A stretch of DNA of 30,297 nt from Candidatus Altimarinota bacterium (lineage in GTDB: Bacteria; Patescibacteriota; Gracilibacteria; BD1-5; UBA2023): positions 1 to 30,297 of the forward strand of contig JBHBSX010000040.1 in the NCBI GenBank assembly GCA_041779175.1, read 5' to 3'. Position numbers and translations under genes: made by a program. How positions within the stretch are numbered: position 1 is the first letter of the stretch; every line of letters begins with the position of its first letter. Shown here piece by piece: positions 1,294 to 30,297 of this stretch. Below the pieces are notes generated by a model that saw only the letters and a program-made list of their open reading frames with translations, was not told the DNA's origin and searched no databases.

Positions 1294-2718
1294 ATGATTC
1301 AAAAAATAAATACAACCTTAAAGCCGGTGGAAAATTTTTTATTACAAAATAAAAAATATATTGGCTATGGTATTCTTGCAATGAGTGTATTTGCAATTTA
1401 CTTTTATCAGAGTTATAAACTTTCCCTTCAATGAGCGGAAATTGCTATGATTCTTTTGTGGATTCTTTTGTGGATGCCGATTTTTTCACGAGTTTTTGGG
1501 ATTAAAGTTTTTGCTGCTTTAATGGGATTTCGTAAGGAAATTGGTATTGTTATGGGGATTTTTTCATTGGTGCATTTTTCTCATATGTTCTCTATGCTTG
1601 GTTATTATTTTGAGAAAAATTTGCCACTGGCTCTTCTGGGAATTATTCCACAAATTATTATTTTTCTTCTTACTATCACATCCAATGATATATCCAAAAA
1701 AATTCTTGGAAAAAATTGGAAAAAACTTCATAGAATGGTGTATATAGTTCCATTGCTGATTGTGCTTCAGATAGGGCTTGCACAGGAGTTTGAAGTGCTT
1801 CCAATAGTGATATTGATAGCATATTATTTTTTCAAAATTCTTGAATGGAAAAATCTAAAATTTTTTACAGAAGAAAAAATAAATTATCCAAAGTGACAAA
1901 AATTCCTTTGTGTTCCTTGTGGTTATATTTATGATCCTGTAAAATGAGATATTGAAGATGGTATTGCTCCTGGAACAGAATTTATAGATATTCCTGATAA
2001 TTGGCGTTGTCCAGAATGTGGTGTGACTAAAGCGGATTTTATTCCATATGATGAAAATAATCAAATTCAGGCAATAAAATTGAAAATTTTTCAAAAAATT
2101 TTCTTGAATCCAACAACTATTGAATTGATTTTAGAAAAGCCTGAAAATTTTTCTCCAAAAATTGGTCAATTTGCTACTTTTGAATATGAGGATGAAAACA
2201 GTAAATTCCGTCGTCAGTATTCCGTTGCAAAAAATGAAAATGGAAAAATTCATTTTCTTATCAAGCTCAAAAAAGATGGACGAGGGGCAAAGATTTTGCA
2301 AGAAATTGCTCAAGGAGAAAATATGAATTTTATAGGATTTTTTGGAGATTTTATTCTTCAGGAAAATGAAAATCCAAAGATATTTATTGCAACAGGAACA
2401 GGTTTGGCACCGATTTATTATATGATGAATAATTCCTTAAGAATTTCTAAAAAATTATTTATGTCTGTGGCAACAAAAGATGAAATTTTTTATAAAAATG
2501 AATTAGAAAGTATTGAAAATCTAGAAATTAACTATCATGTGACTCGTGAAGACGTGGAATGATTTCGTTCTGGCCGAATGGTTTCGGAAGAGATTATTGC
2601 GAATATGCCAAAAAATACAGAATTTTATCTCTGTGGTGCGCCTGCAATGGTAGAAAACACAGTGAATTTTATTAAAAATTCTGGATTTGAGAAGGTATAT
2701 TATGAGGAATTTAATTAA
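1294..2718 (+). CDS. Fusion: MsrQ/ferric-reductase-like membrane domain + rubredoxin + FAD/NAD(P)-binding FNR domain, 474 aa
   Basis: One frame from ATG 1294 to TAA 2716-2718 when TGA=Gly. About 6 TM helices with RKEIG...LVH and WKKLHRMVY. Rubredoxin [10 protein letters not shown]...WRCPECG at about 1897-2040. FNR motifs RQYS, GTGLAP, CGAPAM and terminal EEF. Confidence 0.88.
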
Positions 2719-5284: not shown

Positions 5285-7873
5285 TTATTGAGGATTATTC
5301 TGATTATTATTTGGTTTCTTTTTCTTTTTATTTTTTGAAAAATTTTTGGAAGGCTGATTATTGTTATTATTTGGATTTTTATTTTCTGGTGGTTTGAGTG
5401 TTGGATTTGGATTTTGTGTTGGTGCTGGTGGTTGTGGTACTGGTACTGTATTGCTTCAGTCAAGAACCACGCCACGCGCCGCCAATCTTTCTTCCATTTT
5501 TTTGCGATTTTCTTCGGCTTTTTCTGCTTTTTTCTTTTCTACGGCTTCCATTTGTTTTTGACGATATTTTTGTTCGTCTTCACGGACTTTTGCCGCATAT
5601 TCAAAAATTTTTTTCTCAACAAAATCTCGTTTTTTGGTATATTTTTCTCGAGAAACCTTAAGAAGAACATCACGAGATTGTTGAGCGGGAACATCAATTC
5701 GCGACATAAGTGGCGCGAGTGTTGTCGCCGAAAAAACGGGCGAAGGCATTCCGTCTATGAGCAATTTGGTATAGATATCGTATTTTCTAAGATTTGTCAA
5801 GTCATGTGGCGAAATCACATCTTCTCAGCCAAACATTTCATAGAGTACGCTTGCGTCCTGTTGTCCCACCTGAAAGGAAATAATCGTCCCCACATTTCCA
5901 AATACCGCGCCCTGAACCGTGTCGGCCATCTGAGAGATATATTGATTCGCCATAGTGAGCGAAAGTTTATACTTTCGGGCTTCCGAGAGAATAGTGGCAA
6001 ATGAGTCAGTTGCAAAATTCTGGAATTCGTCGACATACAAGCCAAAATCTCGGCGATCTTTTTCGGGAATATCAGCACGAGTCATGGCTTCAATCTGGAA
6101 TTTGGTAACCATCATGGCACCTAGCAATGCGGAAGAATCTTCCCCAATTCGTCATTTTGAAAGGTTGACAATAAAGATTTTTCCATTGTCCATAATCCAA
6201 CGCATAGAAAATGGATTTTTGGGCTGACCAAGAATATTGCGAAGAATCGGCGAAGAAAGGAATTGTCCTACTTTGTTGAGAATAGGATTCACCGCTTCAG
6301 AAACCATATTTGGCGACATTTTGTCAAATTCTTCATTCCAGAATTGAACAAGCAGCGGATCATCGAGTTTTGCAACAATTTTTTTTCGATATCATTCATT
6401 GGTGAGAATGAGCGGAATAGACACGAGAGTGGCTTCAGGAACGCGAAGAAGCGTGAGAATAGTATTACGAAGAATATATTCCAGACGCGGTCCCCAAGAA
6501 TCCGCAAACATTTTTTTGAAAATCGAAACCAGTCCAGAACCTACAATAGGACGAAGTTCTGGCGATGGCGACTCGAGCATATTGAAAGCAATGGGGAATT
6601 CTGTATCCGCGGGATCAAAAAGCACAATATCATTGGTGCGAGATTTTGGAATAGAACGCAAAATCGTCTCAGCAAGATCGCCATGCGGATCAATGAGCCC
6701 CACGCCTCGTCCCGCAAGAATATCGGAATAAATCATATTTTCAAGTAGCGTCGATTTTCCCATACCCGTTTTTCCGATAATATAAGTATGACGAGCACGA
6801 TCTACCGGCTGAATCCCGAAATTTTCTTTTTTTCCACGAAAATTAGAAACCCCAATTGGTGTGTTCGGTTCTTCGGCATGTGGCAAATTGTGTGGCGGTT
6901 CGAATCGGCGAGTTGTCACCCAATTCACTCAAGGCGTCTTGACATAAATGGTCGGCATGTGCACGAGTCCAGCCAGTTCTGTTACTGAGAGAATGCTTTT
7001 GAATGGGGAATATGGAGTCAGCGTTTGTTCATAAGATTTTCGCAAAATTTTTTTGGAAGGGAGAAACTTGGCTCCATGTGGTGATGAGAAAATTGTGAGA
7101 CTGGATGAGAGTTCTTTGTTGCGATGAGATTTGGTGGACGCAAGCAGAATCCTTGTGGAATAACCATAAGTAGCGAATTTTTCTGAAGTTTCTTCGTCTT
7201 TTTTTTCGGAATTATTTTCGGTTTCTGTTGGTTTTGTGATAAAAATTTGGAGAAAAAATTTTAAAAAAATCCAAGGCCAAGTTATCATCCAAATCCACCA
7301 ATTATGCGATAATTGAAAAATTTTTCTTCTGTCGGAAATATTCGAAGCAATGATTTTTTGAGATTTTTCATCACGAAATCTGTCATCTTCCAGCGGCGAA
7401 AAATCCACACGAAAAAATGAAATTTCGTCTTTTCCAGAGTGTGAAAGCACGGAAGTTATAGGCGAAAGCGGATCAATAGTTTCCTTTTCTGTTCGGTCTT
7501 TGAGATTGACATACAGCTTGATAATTTTGTTGCTGATTTTGTCAAGATGTGCTTCTTGAGTAAAAAATTCTTGTGTTGGCAAAAATGGAAGTTCTGATTC
7601 GGTAATTTCTATGTTATTGTAGTGAGCATAGAGTTGCGATTCAAGAAATTCTTTATATTTTTTTGGGGTTTCAAAGAAAAAACGAATGCGTCCAGCTGCA
7701 TGCACGACTAAAAATCGAAAAGTTGGTCGTTTTCGAAAATTGGGAATCAAAGATTTTTTTTCAAAATTGAGAACATCATGGAGAGTCGAAAGCATTTCTT
7801 TTGCAATAAAAACTCATTTTTCATTGTGGCGATCGACAGCAATTTCGAGAATTTGTGTTTCTTCTTTTTTCAT
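5285..7873 (-). CDS. VirD4/TraD-like type IV coupling-protein family ATPase, 862 aa
   Basis: Single frame with TGA=Gly joins five ORF-track fragments. Walker A GKTGMGKST, LIDPHGDLA, WGPRLEYILRN, Walker B YVDEFQNF and SEARKY. P/N/K-rich low-complexity C-tail. Confidence 0.88.
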
Positions 7874-7988: not shown

Positions 7989-8621
7989 ATGCAAAAAATT
8001 TTTGTAAATGCATCAGAAATGCACATCTCATCTGATTGTTATCTTATTGACAATGGAGAAATAGCAACAGCACATATTACCAGTGAAAAAAATATAAAAA
8101 TTCATTATACGCATATTCCCCAAGAAAATTGTGAAAATATTCGATATTTTTCTTTGGCGGAAAGTGTGGATTTTTGTGGTAATTCTGTGATTTCTGTGAA
8201 TGGAAAGTATATATTTACTACGGAGGCAATAGGAGACGGAGTTCATTCTGCTTTGAATATTCTGGGAATTGCTTCGCACGAGGCTCATATTTCGGCAGAA
8301 GGTATAGCAAAAGTGGACAAGCCATATAAGCAGCTCAATATGAGAGTAGATCAAACCAATATTCTCATCGGTGATAAGTCTATTGTTCGTGGAGTTCCTC
8401 GTCTTGAGATTGCTACTGATGATATTGAGGGTGGACATTCTTGTAAGATACATAGACTTTGAGGAGATTCATTATTTTATCTTGAATCCCATGGAATGAA
8501 TGCAAAGGATGCAGAAATTTTCTTGCTTAATAGTGAGATTTTACGACATTTGAATACACTTCCAGAGGAAGATATGGAGATTTCTTGTAGCAGTATTCAT
8601 AAAAATATTTTAAAAAAATAA
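7989..8621 (+). CDS. SufB/SufD-family Fe-S assembly protein (C-terminal domain only), 210 aa
   Basis: QTNILI...GVPRLEIATDDIEGGHS...LFYLESHG resembles the SufD C-terminus. Extended through the TGA at 8460. Confidence 0.75.
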
Positions 8622-22812: not shown

Positions 22813-25170
22813 ATGAATACAGAAAAACTTCTTAAACCTCAACAAAAAAGTTTTGTCTTTTTTGGAGTTTTTTCCTTTATATTCACGCTCATCGTTCTAT
22901 TTTCTTTAGTGAATATTCCTTTGCTTTTTATGGCAGAGTCTTTTGAGTGAAAGGATTTAATTGTGGGAATTTCAGTGCTGGTTCTTTTTTGTTTATTGTG
23001 ACTAGCATTTTGGTGGACAAAATCAACATTTCAAAAAGAAGAATATGAATTTTTTGATGATAAAATTATTATTCGTCGCGGAACGCCTATTTCGAGTGAT
23101 TCCACGGAGATTTATTTTGACAAAATTACGCAACTTTCTTTGATTCTTGGTTTTTGGCAGAATTTGCTTTTTAAAACGGGAGATATAGTGATTTCAACAG
23201 GGGCTATGGGAAGTGTGGTGCTTCGTGAAATGGATATGCCGAGAGAAATTTTTGAAAAAATTCAGATTTCTATGAAACAAAATGGCTTTCATATGAAACA
23301 AGATACTTTGGTGCAAGATGCTCGTCCACATATGCTTGCCATTTTTATGGAAGTGCTTTCATATATGGCGTCGACTTTTATTTTCTTGTTGTATATGGTT
23401 TCGGTTGCTGGTTCAAAATTGTATGAACAAGGAGATAAAATTTGGGATTATAGTCCTTTATTGTTTATGATTATTGGAGCGGGAATAGTGCTTGCTATTA
23501 TTTCTCTTGTGTTGAAATTTTTGGATTTAAAACAACGACAATATCGAGTGTTTACTGATTCTATTGTGTATGAAGAATGATTTTTGACAAAACATTTTTC
23601 TATTCTTCCTATGGAAAAAGTGGCCGATACGGAAAATGCTCAGGGATTTTTTGCAAAAATTTTTGGACTTCATGATATTATTGTTTCATCAGAATGAAGT
23701 TCGAATAAAGTGATTTTCAAAAATATGATTGATGGTGAATTGATGCTCAAAAACATCAAATACCTCAAAGATGCTATCATTATGTCTCCAAAGCAACATA
23801 CAGAAAAGTCGGAAACTGCTGATGATATTGTTGGTTATGTCAATGTGGTTGATACGCCATTTGAATATAATAAGGATTTTGTTGGTGAATATTCTCCGAA
23901 TGTTGGTCGTTCATTCATTGGAATGTTTACATTAATGATTGTAGCTTTTGTGGCTTCTGTAGAGATATTCTGGTCTTATGAAGGTGATTTTGTATCGGCT
24001 TTTGTGGCTATTGCTTGGATTGCATTTTACTATGCCAAAGATATTATTGCCACTTTTGTTACAAAATATTCTATAACATCATCAACTATTGAATCACGAT
24101 TTACATTTTTATCAAATCAGCATTCAACATTTTCTGTAGAAAAAATCACTCGTGTGGATTTTCGAACCAATCCTATAGATAAAATTTTTGGAACTATGAC
24201 AGTGGTGTTTACGTCTATTGGTTCGTCTCGAAAAATTATTTTCCGTCACATTAAAAATTCAGAAAATCTTAAAAAGAATATTCTTGAAAAAATTGGAATT
24301 TATGAGGATTCTGAAGGTGATGTGATTCCTGTGGATTTTAGTTTTGTCAATTATATCAAGGCGCATCTTTTTGCAACGATTTTTTCTTTGTGAATTATTT
24401 TGTTGTTTGCATTTCCGTATTCAAAAATATTTTATTCAAAGCGTTTTTATGAAAATATTTTGCATAAAAATTTTGTAAAAAGTCGCTATAATATTATTTT
24501 TTGGACAGAAAGATATGCACTTTTGGAAAATATAAAATGACTGCGCGCGCAAAAATATTTTGCCACAGAAACGGGGGAAATATTGCTTTCTATTGCTAGC
24601 AATCAAGAAATTCCTAATGAAAATTCTCAAAAAAATAATTCTTTTAAATTTTTTTCGGGTATTCGTATTGCCTATGTTCCAAAGGTTTTTGAATTTATGG
24701 ATTCTCTGGATTCTCAAATGCTTGGAAGTGAACTACAGTCAGAAAATATCATAACTTCACCACGTTCTATCAAAAATACTCTTATTTCTCTGTGTATTGT
24801 TTTATTGATTATTATCGGTGCTTGTGTAATGATTTTTGGTGCTGAATATAAACAATATATTATTCTTGCAGGTATTCCATTATTTTTGATTTTTGCTGTG
24901 ATTGTCTGGAGTGTTTCTCGCTATCGATATGCTTTGCAGGGTTCAAGGATTTTTGTTCAGTATGGAATTGTGTATTATATTCGTGAAACGGTTTTGTATT
25001 CAAAAGTGAATTTTGTAAATAAATCCCAGAATTTTATTTCAAAAATTTGTAAAAATGGAAATATTTCTATTTTTACGCTTGGAAGTTCGTCAACAGATAT
25101 GCAACTTTCTGATGTTGATAATTATTCTGAATTGTATGAAATACTAAAGTGAAAGATAAAATCAAAATAA
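22813..25170 (+). CDS. Multi-pass membrane protein with about 5 bacterial PH (bPH_2, YdbT-like) repeats, 785 aa
   Basis: Repeating unit of a TM hairpin followed by Y.F/V.....I....G...KI/V......Q......IFG.G.I...S.G. Single frame from ATG 22813 to TAA 25168-25170. Confidence 0.8.
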
Positions 25171-26724: not shown

Positions 26725-27918
26725 ATGAAAAAACAAGCTTTAAAAACAGGCCTTTCTCTGCTGTTGATTGTAAATATTTTGTCTTCTGCAACTTTGATAG
26801 CATCGGCCGAAGATATTTCTGAAAACACTGAAAATTCTCAAGAAGTTGTCACTCTTGAATCGAGCTCTGATAATCAAAGTGATACATCAACCCAAGAAAC
26901 AACATCAGTCCAAGAAACAACGCCAGTCCAGGTTTTGTCTTCCGCTCCCGAAGATCAAGTAGTACACAATGCGCCAATAACTCCTTCGGAAACAATTGCA
27001 AAGCAAAATTCTATTGATACGTGGAAAATGCTCCATTGTCAAATTCTTGCACAAGGATTTATTTGGGCAAGACCAACAAGTGATTATCTATCAAAGGCAC
27101 AATGTGATGGAAAGGATGTGGGAACATCGTCTTTGCTTTTGGAACAACGCCAGCGAGTCATTGACTTTTTGCGACAAAATCCAGCACAAACAACAAGTCA
27201 ATCAGATATTTTTGATGAAAAAACTTTTCGAGCATATGGAGAGCGTATTCAAAAAAATATAGAATATGAAAAAAAGGATAAAAATGCTTTTGTTTGGTCT
27301 GAATTGATGGAAGATAATAATAATTTTTTAAAAAATCATCCAAATCTCCCAAATCACAATAAGGAAGCATTGGTATTTTCATTGATGAGAGAGAAAATCG
27401 GTATTCCATTTTCAGAATTTAAACAAATTGCTGCTCAAAGAAATTTGGCAGAAATTCAAAAAGTGCTAAATAAGTATTCCGAAGTACATATTGATGATAT
27501 TGCTTTTTTAAGCTCAATTCATAATCTTGATCAGATTAATATAGCAAAAAAATCTTCAATAAAAGGAGTGGATATATATTCTTCGGCTAATATTGCTCCA
27601 CTAACAAAAGAGGGAAAAAATATGGCAGTATCTATGTATGATGTAGAGTTAAAAAATGCTCCACGTTGGATCACGCTTTCGGTTTCAGAAAATGCTGTTC
27701 GTGAGAACTTTACTATGACGGTTTTAGAATCACAAATCAATTTTTCAGAAACTATTCCTTCGGAATTTCAAATTGTACTTACAAACAAAATAACAAGAAA
27801 AAAATTTGAAAAAAATGTAAAAATTGTTGTTCGTGATGAAAGTTCAACAAATAATGTGAATGAATTTACGCTTTCGCAATTTACGCTTGCAATTATTCAA
27901 TACTTGACCTCTAAATAA
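26725..27918 (+). CDS. Hypothetical secreted protein, 397 aa
   Basis: Signal peptide ending ASA, S/T/E/Q-rich linker with an 18-bp tandem (26893-26928), helical middle and beta-rich C-terminus. Confidence 0.8.
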   Translation: MKKQALKTGLSLLLIVNILSSATLIASAEDISENTENSQEVVTLESSSDNQSDTSTQETTSVQETTPVQVLSSAPEDQVVHNAPITPSETIAKQNSIDTWKMLHCQILAQGFIWARPTSDYLSKAQCDGKDVGTSSLLLEQRQRVIDFLRQNPAQTTSQSDIFDEKTFRAYGERIQKNIEYEKKDKNAFVWSELMEDNNNFLKNHPNLPNHNKEALVFSLMREKIGIPFSEFKQIAAQRNLAEIQKVLNKYSEVHIDDIAFLSSIHNLDQINIAKKSSIKGVDIYSSANIAPLTKEGKNMAVSMYDVELKNAPRWITLSVSENAVRENFTMTVLESQINFSETIPSEFQIVLTNKITRKKFEKNVKIVVRDESSTNNVNEFTLSQFTLAIIQYLTSK

Positions 27919-29016: not shown

Positions 29017-29046
29017 AATAAAATCCCATTTTTATGGGATTTTATT
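29017..29046. terminator. Bidirectional terminator (AATCCC family)
   Basis: AATAAAATCCCAT-TTTT-ATGGGATTTTATT. The stop of the convergent gene lies in the loop. Confidence 0.8.
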
Positions 29047-30297
29047 GAGTGTGATTTTTTCTAAGAATTCTGTTGCAAGCATTCTTTCCTCGTATCAGCC
29101 AAGAGTTGGTATGAGAACATAGAATAATACTCGACTTGCAAAATTCTTTTTTGTAACGATTCACAATTTATCATCAGTATACGCATCCAAGTAACTTATA
29201 AGCTCATCTTCCCAATTATCAATTCCACTAAAAATTGTTTTTTCATAAGTATTTTCTGTATCCAGTCTTTGTGCCTTTTCCAAGAAAAAATGCTTGAGTG
29301 CTAGCTGTAATTCCTCTCTATTAAATCCAGATTTTGTAACCATTTCATCTCATTGTTTTATAGCCTCGTCAATATGTATATTGACATACCAATATTCTTG
29401 CTTTATTGCCAATAGCAAATCCGTATACAAATTATTTTTTTCAAAAAATTTTTTCATTTCCGACCATTTTTCTGTTGGAATTCATAGTTCCGTGCTATTA
29501 TATATTGTTCATAAAGCTATCTGTTCCAGACTGTTATTTATTACAATATTAACCAACGCGGGATGATATAAGTCTTGTGGCAAGTATTTTTGTTCATGAT
29601 TTTTCAAAAAATTTTCAAGCAAAATGATCGATTTATCAATCAAATAATTATTTTCAAAAAGTGCTGAGGTCTGAATATAATTTCCGAGACTCCTCACAAC
29701 TTCGAGCCGTCCATACTCTCATGAATCTTTTTTACAATATATTTTTCCATTATTTTTTGCGATAACTTTTTCTATAATTTTTAAATATTTTTCATATTCT
29801 GCAATATATTCAGCATTGAGAATTAAAGTTTTTTCTATTTGATCGCCAGATTTTTGTAGATTTTTTATTTGTAAAAATTTTTCATCAATTTGCTTTTGAA
29901 AATCTTGATATGTCTCTAAGTCTTCCTTGCTCAAAAGTGTTTCAATGGTTGAATCTTTTGTAATTTGTTTTCCATAAGTATTGAAAATGAGATTTTGTTT
30001 TCTTTGAATTTCTATAATTTCAAAAAATAGAATACTTTTTCTAAAGATATCAGATTTTCCCTTTATTTCTGTATTTTTGGAATTATTATGCAAAAAATTA
30101 ACAAAATTTTTATCAAGATTTGTTGATATTTCTCCCAATTCTTTACAAGATTCAGCATCAAGATATTTTGGCATATGTGCTATCGAGGTATCAACTTTGA
30201 GTCATTTTTCAGAAATTGGAAACAATCTATCAAAAAATCATTCCACACCTTGTGGTGTAGTATTTTCCGTAGTGGTAGTTTCAGAATTTTTTGAAAA
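29032..30297 (-). CDS. Hypothetical protein, 5' partial (at least 421 aa)
   Basis: Frame open from the window end to TAA at 29034-29032 with TGA=Gly, joining three ORF-track fragments. No motif recognised. Confidence 0.75.

Follow-up and report, generated by a model that had tools for sequence, protein, structure and literature searches.

Organization of the locus and reading of its TGA codons

The DNA analysed here (the window) comprises positions 1 to 30,297 of contig JBHBSX010000040.1 from a Candidatus Altimarinota bacterium (assembly GCA_041779175.1), its full length being 30,297 nucleotides and its source metagenomes pig and oral. At its left end lie three co-oriented genes on the forward strand, encoding a flavin mononucleotide (FMN)-binding lipoprotein whose 5' end is cut by the end of the contig (3-401), an ApbE-family flavin transferase (403-1284) and a tripartite protein of 474 residues (1294-2718, TAA stop) in which a transmembrane (TM) domain of the MsrQ/STEAP type, a rubredoxin and an FNR-type flavin adenine dinucleotide (FAD)/NAD(P)H module follow each other in a single chain (henceforth the fusion). 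An initial annotation, made from the letters alone, had singled out the fusion and had left the two upstream genes unused, both of which supply functional context.

The fusion gene carries four in-frame TGA codons, at positions 1432, 1894, 1945 and 2560 (codons 47, 201, 218 and 423). As had been claimed, it reads through as one frame if TGA specifies glycine and breaks into fragments under translation table 11; nearly all long open reading frames (ORFs) of the window likewise require TGA read-through. To test this, codons were tallied in an alignment of 26 orthologues from related genomes, over the columns that are at least 90% conserved. TGA accounted for 65 of 330 codons in 13 conserved-Gly columns and for 0 of 51 in two conserved-Trp columns, a distribution that rules out TGA as a tryptophan codon, and it occurred once in any other conserved column. 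At codon 218, in the 'GD' motif of the rubredoxin, relatives have either GGN (17) or TGA (9) and nothing else, and the tryptophan seen in GTGLAP-type motifs of many database copies corresponds to TGA codons that the source pipelines had read with code 4. Since TGA is confined, that single occurrence apart, to conserved-Gly columns, termination at the TGA at 1894, a fate that the initial annotation had allowed for, is excluded on comparative grounds.

Domain architecture of the fusion

The membrane domain (residues 1-190, 1294-1863) is recognised by Pfam as Ferric_reduct (residues 52-156, 28.9 bits, just above the cut-off of 28) and by NCBIfam as MsrQ (residues 51-158, E 1e-9), and the best match of the family profile in the PDB is STEAP2 (7tai, E 1.9e-5). 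In an AlphaFold2 (AF2) model of the fusion, with a mean predicted local distance difference test score of 92.9, this domain consists of an N-terminal amphipathic helix and six TM helices (20-38, 41-67, 71-100, 110-128, 140-163 and 168-185). The rubredoxin (residues 203-249, 1900-2040, Pfam 70.5 bits) has its iron-binding CxxC pairs exactly at 1909-1920 and 2008-2019, the coordinates originally reported, and the four cysteines (Cys206, Cys209, Cys239 and Cys242) are invariant in 93 of 93 relatives, the set (alignment A4) over which all residue conservation was counted. The FNR-type module (residues 256-474, 2059-2715) shows RQYS and GTGLAP motifs, matches FAD_binding_6 (residues 280-353) and NAD_binding_1 (residues 364-456) in Pfam as well as the reductases MmoC (E 4.7e-26) and BenC (E 3e-20) over residues 263-473 in NCBIfam, and aligns with FNR and b5-reductase structures at TM-scores of 0.7-0.8 by target in Foldseek. 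The top full-length PDB match of the whole model was the bacterial NADPH oxidase SpNOX (8qt6, E 2.4e-17), with which the fusion shares the fold of a TM domain over a dehydrogenase domain. Pfam, NCBIfam and AF2 thus agree with the earlier proposal of an intact rubredoxin between a roughly six-helix ferric-reductase/MsrQ-like domain and an FAD/NAD(P)H reductase domain. By analogy, we propose that the rubredoxin would occupy the place of the [2Fe-2S] domain in BenC/MmoC-type reductases.

A few relatives have about 270 residues before the rubredoxin: P0086, P0098 (about 545 residues), P0127 and P0138 (about 542-557 residues). P0127, which begins with about 100 additional residues, still matches Ferric_reduct weakly and may represent the '8-TM' form described for Vampirococcus (see below); P0086 and P0098 have no Ferric_reduct match and are devoid of the conserved Arg and His pattern.

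An FMN-binding lipoprotein and an ApbE homologue precede the fusion

The full-length form of the upstream lipoprotein (P0269) has 137 residues, with a lipobox (LLAS↓C), a Ser/Thr-rich linker, an FMN_bind domain and a C-terminal flavinylation-like motif, GGASLTT. The lipobox (L-A-S-C) and GGASLTT are both invariant in 15 homologues, as would be expected if ApbE acted on a lipid-anchored substrate, in which FMN would likely be attached to Ser123. In Foldseek the AF2 model of the lipoprotein gave only weak PDB matches (E about 0.02), the best being to FMN-binding domains from flavinylated proteins (8p2a, 8p2b). The adjoining ApbE homologue (293 residues, three TGA-encoded glycines) matches Pfam ApbE with 109.5 bits over residues 28-267. 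It has no signal peptide or lipobox: the ApbE domain begins near residue 14, and the frame stays open for just five codons beyond the ORF. Comparably short ApbE frames of 257-300 residues, which could hardly accommodate an N-terminal signal, recur in several genera of the family, and many of these frames have an FMN_bind gene beside them.

The co-oriented order lipoprotein, ApbE, fusion recurs in two further genomes of the same genus (G009 and G042) and at the locus of the relative P0018, so that FMN_bind, ApbE and fusion genes are adjacent in 3 of 3 same-genus genomes that carry the fusion. Across 61 genomes of the same GTDB family, ApbE is present in all 31 with a full-length fusion and lies within 5 kb of it in 15 of these, while 10 of the 11 genomes lacking ApbE also lack the fusion, the eleventh being an 80%-complete assembly with fusion fragments; as these genomes are related and not independent, the counts are descriptive and overstate the support that they lend. 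None of the three genes was found in G030, another genome of the genus (92% complete), and they may thus be retained or lost together.

This linkage does not hold everywhere. The neighbourhoods of two distant homologues (P0006 and P0042, loci L002 and L003, in a clade of 43-44% identity) have yceG upstream and no ApbE, the fusion following gltX, two small genes without known function and yceG; downstream, on the opposite strand, are genes for a glutaredoxin, a rhodanese, sulfur-transport proteins and AhpC. A second FMN_bind lipoprotein gene (LFAS↓C lipobox, Ser/Thr linker, AIGGASDTT) was seen on another contig of genome G000 (C68, locus L039, 777-1274), directly followed by a gene for a Fur-family regulator (1366-1752, Pfam FUR E 2.2e-7), a neighbour that may hint at iron or peroxide control of flavinylated surface proteins.

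The membrane domain is predicted to combine an inner flavin pocket with an outer haem site

To assign residues of the membrane domain, we aligned the family with E. coli MsrQ, compared the family profile with the PDB and took the roles of individual residues from the published MsrQ model (Carpentier et al., 2025; PMC12525009), so that the ligand assignment is based on the MsrQ and STEAP alignments together with that model. In MsrQ, His151 stacks on the flavin and Arg77 marks the flavin pocket (PMC12525009). The corresponding residues of the fusion are His146 (1729-1731; His in 72 and Gln, as in STEAP, in 19 of the 93 relatives) and Arg80 (1531-1533; 92/93). The other putative pocket residues are Lys81 (MsrQ Arg78; Lys in 68/93, Arg in 18/93), Leu126 (MsrQ Leu131; 90/93), Ser130 (MsrQ Ser135; 92/93) and Trp142 (MsrQ Trp147; 91/93), with Arg80, Leu126, Ser130 and Trp142 each conserved in about 97% or more of the relatives. 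His94 (1573-1575; 91/93) aligns with MsrQ His91 and the TM3 His of STEAP and is the predicted TM3 haem ligand. The initial annotation had called for a predicted structure to place the histidines; by the topology of our model, Arg80 and His146 lie close to the inner face, and the outer half contains His94 and residue 159.

Two-haem proteins of the NOX type carry two His 14 apart on TM3 and two His 13 apart on TM5. The fusion instead has Arg80 and His94 on TM3 and His146 and Gln159 on TM5. Because Arg80 stands at the position of the inner-haem His of NOX, the residue pattern argues that the membrane domain of the family is of the MsrQ/STEAP type, with one outer haem and one inner flavin, and not of the two-haem NOX type.

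A clade-specific loss of the TM5 haem ligand

In the genus of the window the outer site deviates from this scheme. Residue 159 (1768-1770, CAG) is Gln and aligns with the TM5 haem ligand, His164 of MsrQ and the TM5 His of STEAP, which bears out the initial observation that in the helix WKKLH146...Q159 a Gln stands 13 residues after the His, where a second His would be expected. Among the 93 relatives, residue 159 is His in 87, Gln in 4 and Leu in 2, and the combined pattern at positions 80/94/146/159 is RHHH (MsrQ-like) in 68, RHQH (STEAP-like) in 19 and RHHQ in 4 clusters. The genes of G009 and G042 bring the RHHQ group to six sequences, the window gene and all five other members of its clade, to which Gln159 is confined. 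This clade has 100% support, is sister to P0018 (His/His) and is nested within the His/His group, so that Gln159 appears to have arisen in a single derived clade. We rejected a sequencing error, codon 159 being CAG in three independent assemblies (the window, G042 and L033).

Six further changes are co-fixed in the Gln159 clade (Tyr/Phe98 to Met, Trp105 to Tyr/Phe, Tyr112 to Leu, Ala119 to Pro, Leu120 to Gln and Val161 to Gly); all six surround the outer pocket, in the outer half of the helices, and the TM3-TM4 loop on that side is shorter by eight residues. The ratio of nonsynonymous to synonymous substitution rates (dN/dS) of the TM domain within the genus is 0.15-0.23 for unsaturated pairs, and 0-0.23 for the outer half; the domain is therefore maintained under purifying selection and is not decaying.

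We considered substitutes for the missing ligand. The initial annotation had pointed to an extra His in the motif LVHFSH, and one is present (His97), but the first His of the motif, His94, is the near-invariant TM3 ligand, whereas at position 97 a His is shared by just 3 of 93 relatives and is absent from the same-clade members P0003 and G042; we thus rejected His97 as a replacement ligand. Met98 is fixed in the clade and is an unlikely trans ligand, as it lies on the same helix as His94. No compensating conserved His or Met was found on TM5 in the clade. The absence of the axial TM5 ligand suggests that the outer haem in this genus is probably not ligated by two His, and that the site may hold a five-coordinate haem, a haem with a weak sixth ligand, or be otherwise altered, in a protein that would still function. 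The earlier suggestion that haem or flavin content may differ is in this light a reasonable hypothesis that can now be put more sharply.

Partner and cofactor genes

Searches for partner and cofactor genes were conducted in three genomes of the genus (G000, G042 and G009, 81-95% complete), and controls were detected in every search. In these three genomes neither ferrochelatase nor ALAD was found, nor was flavokinase, an MsrP-type molybdoenzyme (PF00174) or rubrerythrin, all of which were detected in control genomes. The fusion is the sole Ferric_reduct gene and the sole rubredoxin gene in each of the three. We accordingly rejected an MsrPQ function and a rubredoxin that feeds rubrerythrin. 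Haem and flavin synthesis and a conventional respiratory chain appear to be lacking in these bacteria and, with no synthesis genes found for either cofactor, haem and flavins must therefore be scavenged.

Distribution and prior description

A word-indexed search returned 159 matches, more than 100 of them full length with the same three parts, and those with a named source come from Candidatus Gracilibacteria or Altimarinota. The full-length fusion is present in 31 of 61 genomes of the same GTDB family; in a sample of 200 genomes of the class, matches are confined to three families, all TGA-rich (f1, f127 and f136), and a search of 300 other genomes of the phylum found none. One named record, 'Candidatus Gracilibacteria bacterium GN02-873', is genome G042 of the genus itself, and homologues at 28-32% identity over about 430 residues are encoded in several metagenome-assembled genomes labelled 'candidate division SR1' or Absconditabacteria.

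The architecture has been reported before. Moreira et al. (2021; Nat Commun 12:2454, PMC8080830) described 'an atypical tripartite domain structure' for Vamp_33_45 of Vampirococcus lugosii, in which a flavocytochrome-like domain with several TM helices, a rubredoxin and a ferredoxin-reductase-like domain are joined; they found it conserved across SR1 and proposed a role in generating a proton-motive force (PMF) or in O2 detoxification. The initial annotation had not recognised the architecture, which is in fact widespread in code-25 lineages. It had also asked whether the layout is common and characterised: with more than 100 homologues it is common, and no member has been characterised biochemically. 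The architecture is thus of a known kind and not new; the points that merit follow-up are the link to flavinylation and the loss, in this genus alone, of the TM5 haem ligand.

A candidate route for electrons to the cell surface

Taken together, our results make it fairly probable that the three genes (3-401, 403-1284 and 1294-2718) act as one module and carry electrons that cytosolic NAD(P)H supplies out to the cell surface. In the route that we envisage, NAD(P)H would reduce the FAD of the FNR module, from which the rubredoxin iron would accept single electrons and pass them to a flavin in the MsrQ/STEAP-type pocket at the inner face (R80, K81, L126, S130, W142 and H146). A haem b in the outer leaflet would take the electrons across the membrane, and they would then reach the lipid-anchored FMN_bind lipoprotein, whose GGAS motif would bear FMN covalently attached by ApbE, to be handed to an external acceptor. 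Domain content, motifs, gene linkage, genetic code and selection are direct observations; the occupancy of the cofactors, the direction of electron flow and the acceptor are what we infer beyond them. The likely role is redox balancing by regeneration of NAD(P)+, or the reduction of a substrate outside the cell, for instance Fe(III) or oxygen species, with cofactors derived from the host, because haem and flavin synthesis and a conventional respiratory chain appear to be lacking.

Several points weigh against this reading. The replacement of His159 by Gln makes haem binding in the genus of the window itself uncertain. The FMN_bind match of the lipoprotein in the window scores 18.4 bits, below the Pfam cut-off of 22; its same-genus orthologues score 26-27 bits, above it. 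An ApbE without a signal peptide sits uneasily with a presumed lipoprotein substrate that is exported. Finally, in a clade of 42-48% identity the fusion is not next to ApbE, which is still paired with the lipoprotein gene, and the relatedness of the genomes detracts from the co-occurrence counts as noted above.

For the genus of the window, a more far-reaching and rather doubtful reading is that the outer site has been re-engineered (His159Gln, Tyr/Phe98Met, Leu120Gln and the shorter loop), either for a five-coordinate, ligand-binding haem that is not bis-His ligated or, more radically, for the covalent flavin of the lipoprotein, which would replace the haem; a vacated pocket that takes the lipoprotein flavin would suit a bacterium unable to make haem. 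If true, this would be a natural ferric-reductase-domain protein that works without the canonical pair of axial ligands.

Alternative functions

The best surviving alternative, which we nonetheless regard as unlikely, is a NOX-like oxidase whose outer haem reduces O2 or reacts with peroxide or NO at the surface, the lipoprotein being an accessory or unrelated; in the genus of the window, loss of the sixth ligand would open a coordination site for the substrate. In its favour, SpNOX is the top full-length structural match, the pig and oral metagenomes speak for an oxygen-exposed habitat, His159Gln and the remodelled pocket resemble a possible shift to a ligand-binding haem, and an O2-detoxifying role was suggested by Moreira et al. 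(PMC8080830). The TM domain, however, is of the MsrQ/STEAP type with Arg at the position of the inner-haem His of NOX, most members of the family keep a six-coordinate bis-His site, and the linkage to ApbE and FMN_bind points to a protein as the acceptor.

Quite improbable, in our view, is the published proposal for Vamp_33_45 that the protein lies at the heart of a non-standard respiratory chain that is fed by ferredoxin or NAD(P)H and builds a PMF for the F-type ATPase (PMC8080830). Other membrane redox complexes are indeed lacking, and the fusion is both the only Ferric_reduct gene and the only rubredoxin gene of the genus. As opposed to building a PMF of normal polarity, export of electrons dissipates it. 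In NOX and STEAP proteins, electron export from cytosolic NAD(P)H makes the inside more positive, releases H+ inside and depolarises the membrane, which therefore argues against this idea; nor is a proton-pumping or quinone-loop element evident, and the proposal leaves out the linkage with ApbE and the FMN lipoprotein.

We give equally little credence to the possibility that the TM domain of the genus is a haem-free membrane anchor and that rubredoxin and FNR module act as an NAD(P)H:rubredoxin reductase for cytosolic acceptors. The missing TM5 ligand and the failure to find haem synthesis genes in the three genomes of the genus would fit this idea, but purifying selection acts on the TM domain and also on its outer half (dN/dS 0-0.23), His94 and every residue of the flavin pocket are kept, genes for rubrerythrin or a free rubredoxin as partners were not found, and the ApbE and lipoprotein genes stay adjacent in the same genus.

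That the locus is not one gene at all, translation stopping at the TGAs to give separate membrane, rubredoxin and FNR fragments or a pseudogene, as the splitting of the frame under table 11 might suggest, is effectively refuted already by the partition of TGA between Gly and Trp columns (65/330 versus 0/51), by the read-through that almost every long ORF of the window requires, by the more than 100 full-length homologues and by dN/dS far below 1 across all three domains.

Significance and other genes of the window

The Gracilibacteria and SR1 depend on hosts, have genomes of only about 1 Mb and lack any recognised respiratory chain, and the three-gene module may be their sole membrane redox device. 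The identity of its acceptor would reveal how they rebalance NAD(P)H and what they take from the host (haem, flavins and perhaps iron). The family also offers a natural single-chain series of FAD, rubredoxin, membrane flavin, haem and surface flavin, and the genus of the window a naturally occurring 'mutant' in which selection has maintained the altered haem ligand, a probe for the role of the TM5 His in MsrQ, STEAP and NOX-type domains.

Elsewhere in the window, an 862-residue protein (5285-7873, reverse strand) has weak matches to TrwB/TraG/VirD4-type coupling proteins and HerA/FtsK-like ATPases and could be a type IV secretion or DNA-transfer ATPase, encoded in a genome of about 1 Mb. A SufBD-core protein of 210 residues (7989-8621, forward strand) matches positions 135-229 of the profile and may be a truncated or minimal SufB/D. 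A 785-residue protein (22813-25170, forward strand) contains three bacterial PH (bPH_2) domains and no other recognised domain, and two ORFs of about 400 codons (26725-27918, forward strand; 29032-30246, reverse strand) have no Pfam match at E <= 1e-4.

Comparison with known systems

The closest described arrangement is that of Vamp_33_45, which we compared through its published description and the SR1 relatives. It has the same three-part layout and belongs to the same lineages that read TGA as glycine, but was reported with eight TM helices, as opposed to six and an N-terminal amphipathic helix here; the paper (PMC8080830) mentions neither ApbE or FMN-binding partners nor haem-ligand residues, and its functions are proposals only. 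As for gene context, Méheust et al. (2021; eLife 10:e66878, PMC8238504) defined 'MsrQ-like' flavinylation systems, in which a PF01794 protein with C-terminal PF00175 is encoded with apbE and an FMN-binding gene and electrons were proposed to flow from NAD(P)H to extracytosolic FMN; that study mentions neither rubredoxin nor Gracilibacteria. Our locus resembles these systems in the clustering of a PF01794 gene with apbE and the gene for an exported FMN-binding protein. They are, however, mostly actinobacterial, with the membrane and NAD domains joined directly and two haem sites described, whereas the fusion has a rubredoxin between these domains, the neighbouring ApbE is without a signal peptide and the residues point to one haem plus a flavin pocket.

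Among characterised proteins, E. coli MsrQ (YedZ) shares the inner pocket (R80/K81/L126/S130/W142/H146 matching R77/R78/L131/S135/W147/H151) and the TM3 ligand (H94 matching H91), but has His164 as the TM5 ligand where Gln159 stands here, and it receives electrons from the separate reductase Fre and passes them to MsrP, which was not found in the genus of the window. Mammalian STEAP1-4 (7tai, 6hcy) likewise have the inner flavin pocket and the TM3 haem His, but their N-terminal reductase domain, of the F420H2:NADP+ type, is unrelated. SpNOX (8qt6, 8qq7) stacks a TM haem domain on a cytosolic FAD/NAD(P)H dehydrogenase domain within a single chain, as does the fusion, but holds two bis-His haems with FAD docked directly under the inner one, whereas the fusion has Arg at the position of the inner-haem His, the FAD_binding_6/NAD_binding_1 pair of Pfam domains and a rubredoxin between the two parts. 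Reductases of the BenC/MmoC type, finally, resemble the cytosolic half of the fusion in carrying a one-electron iron centre N-terminal to the FNR module; they are soluble with a plant-type [2Fe-2S] centre, while in the fusion the iron centre is that of a rubredoxin and the whole is joined to a membrane domain.

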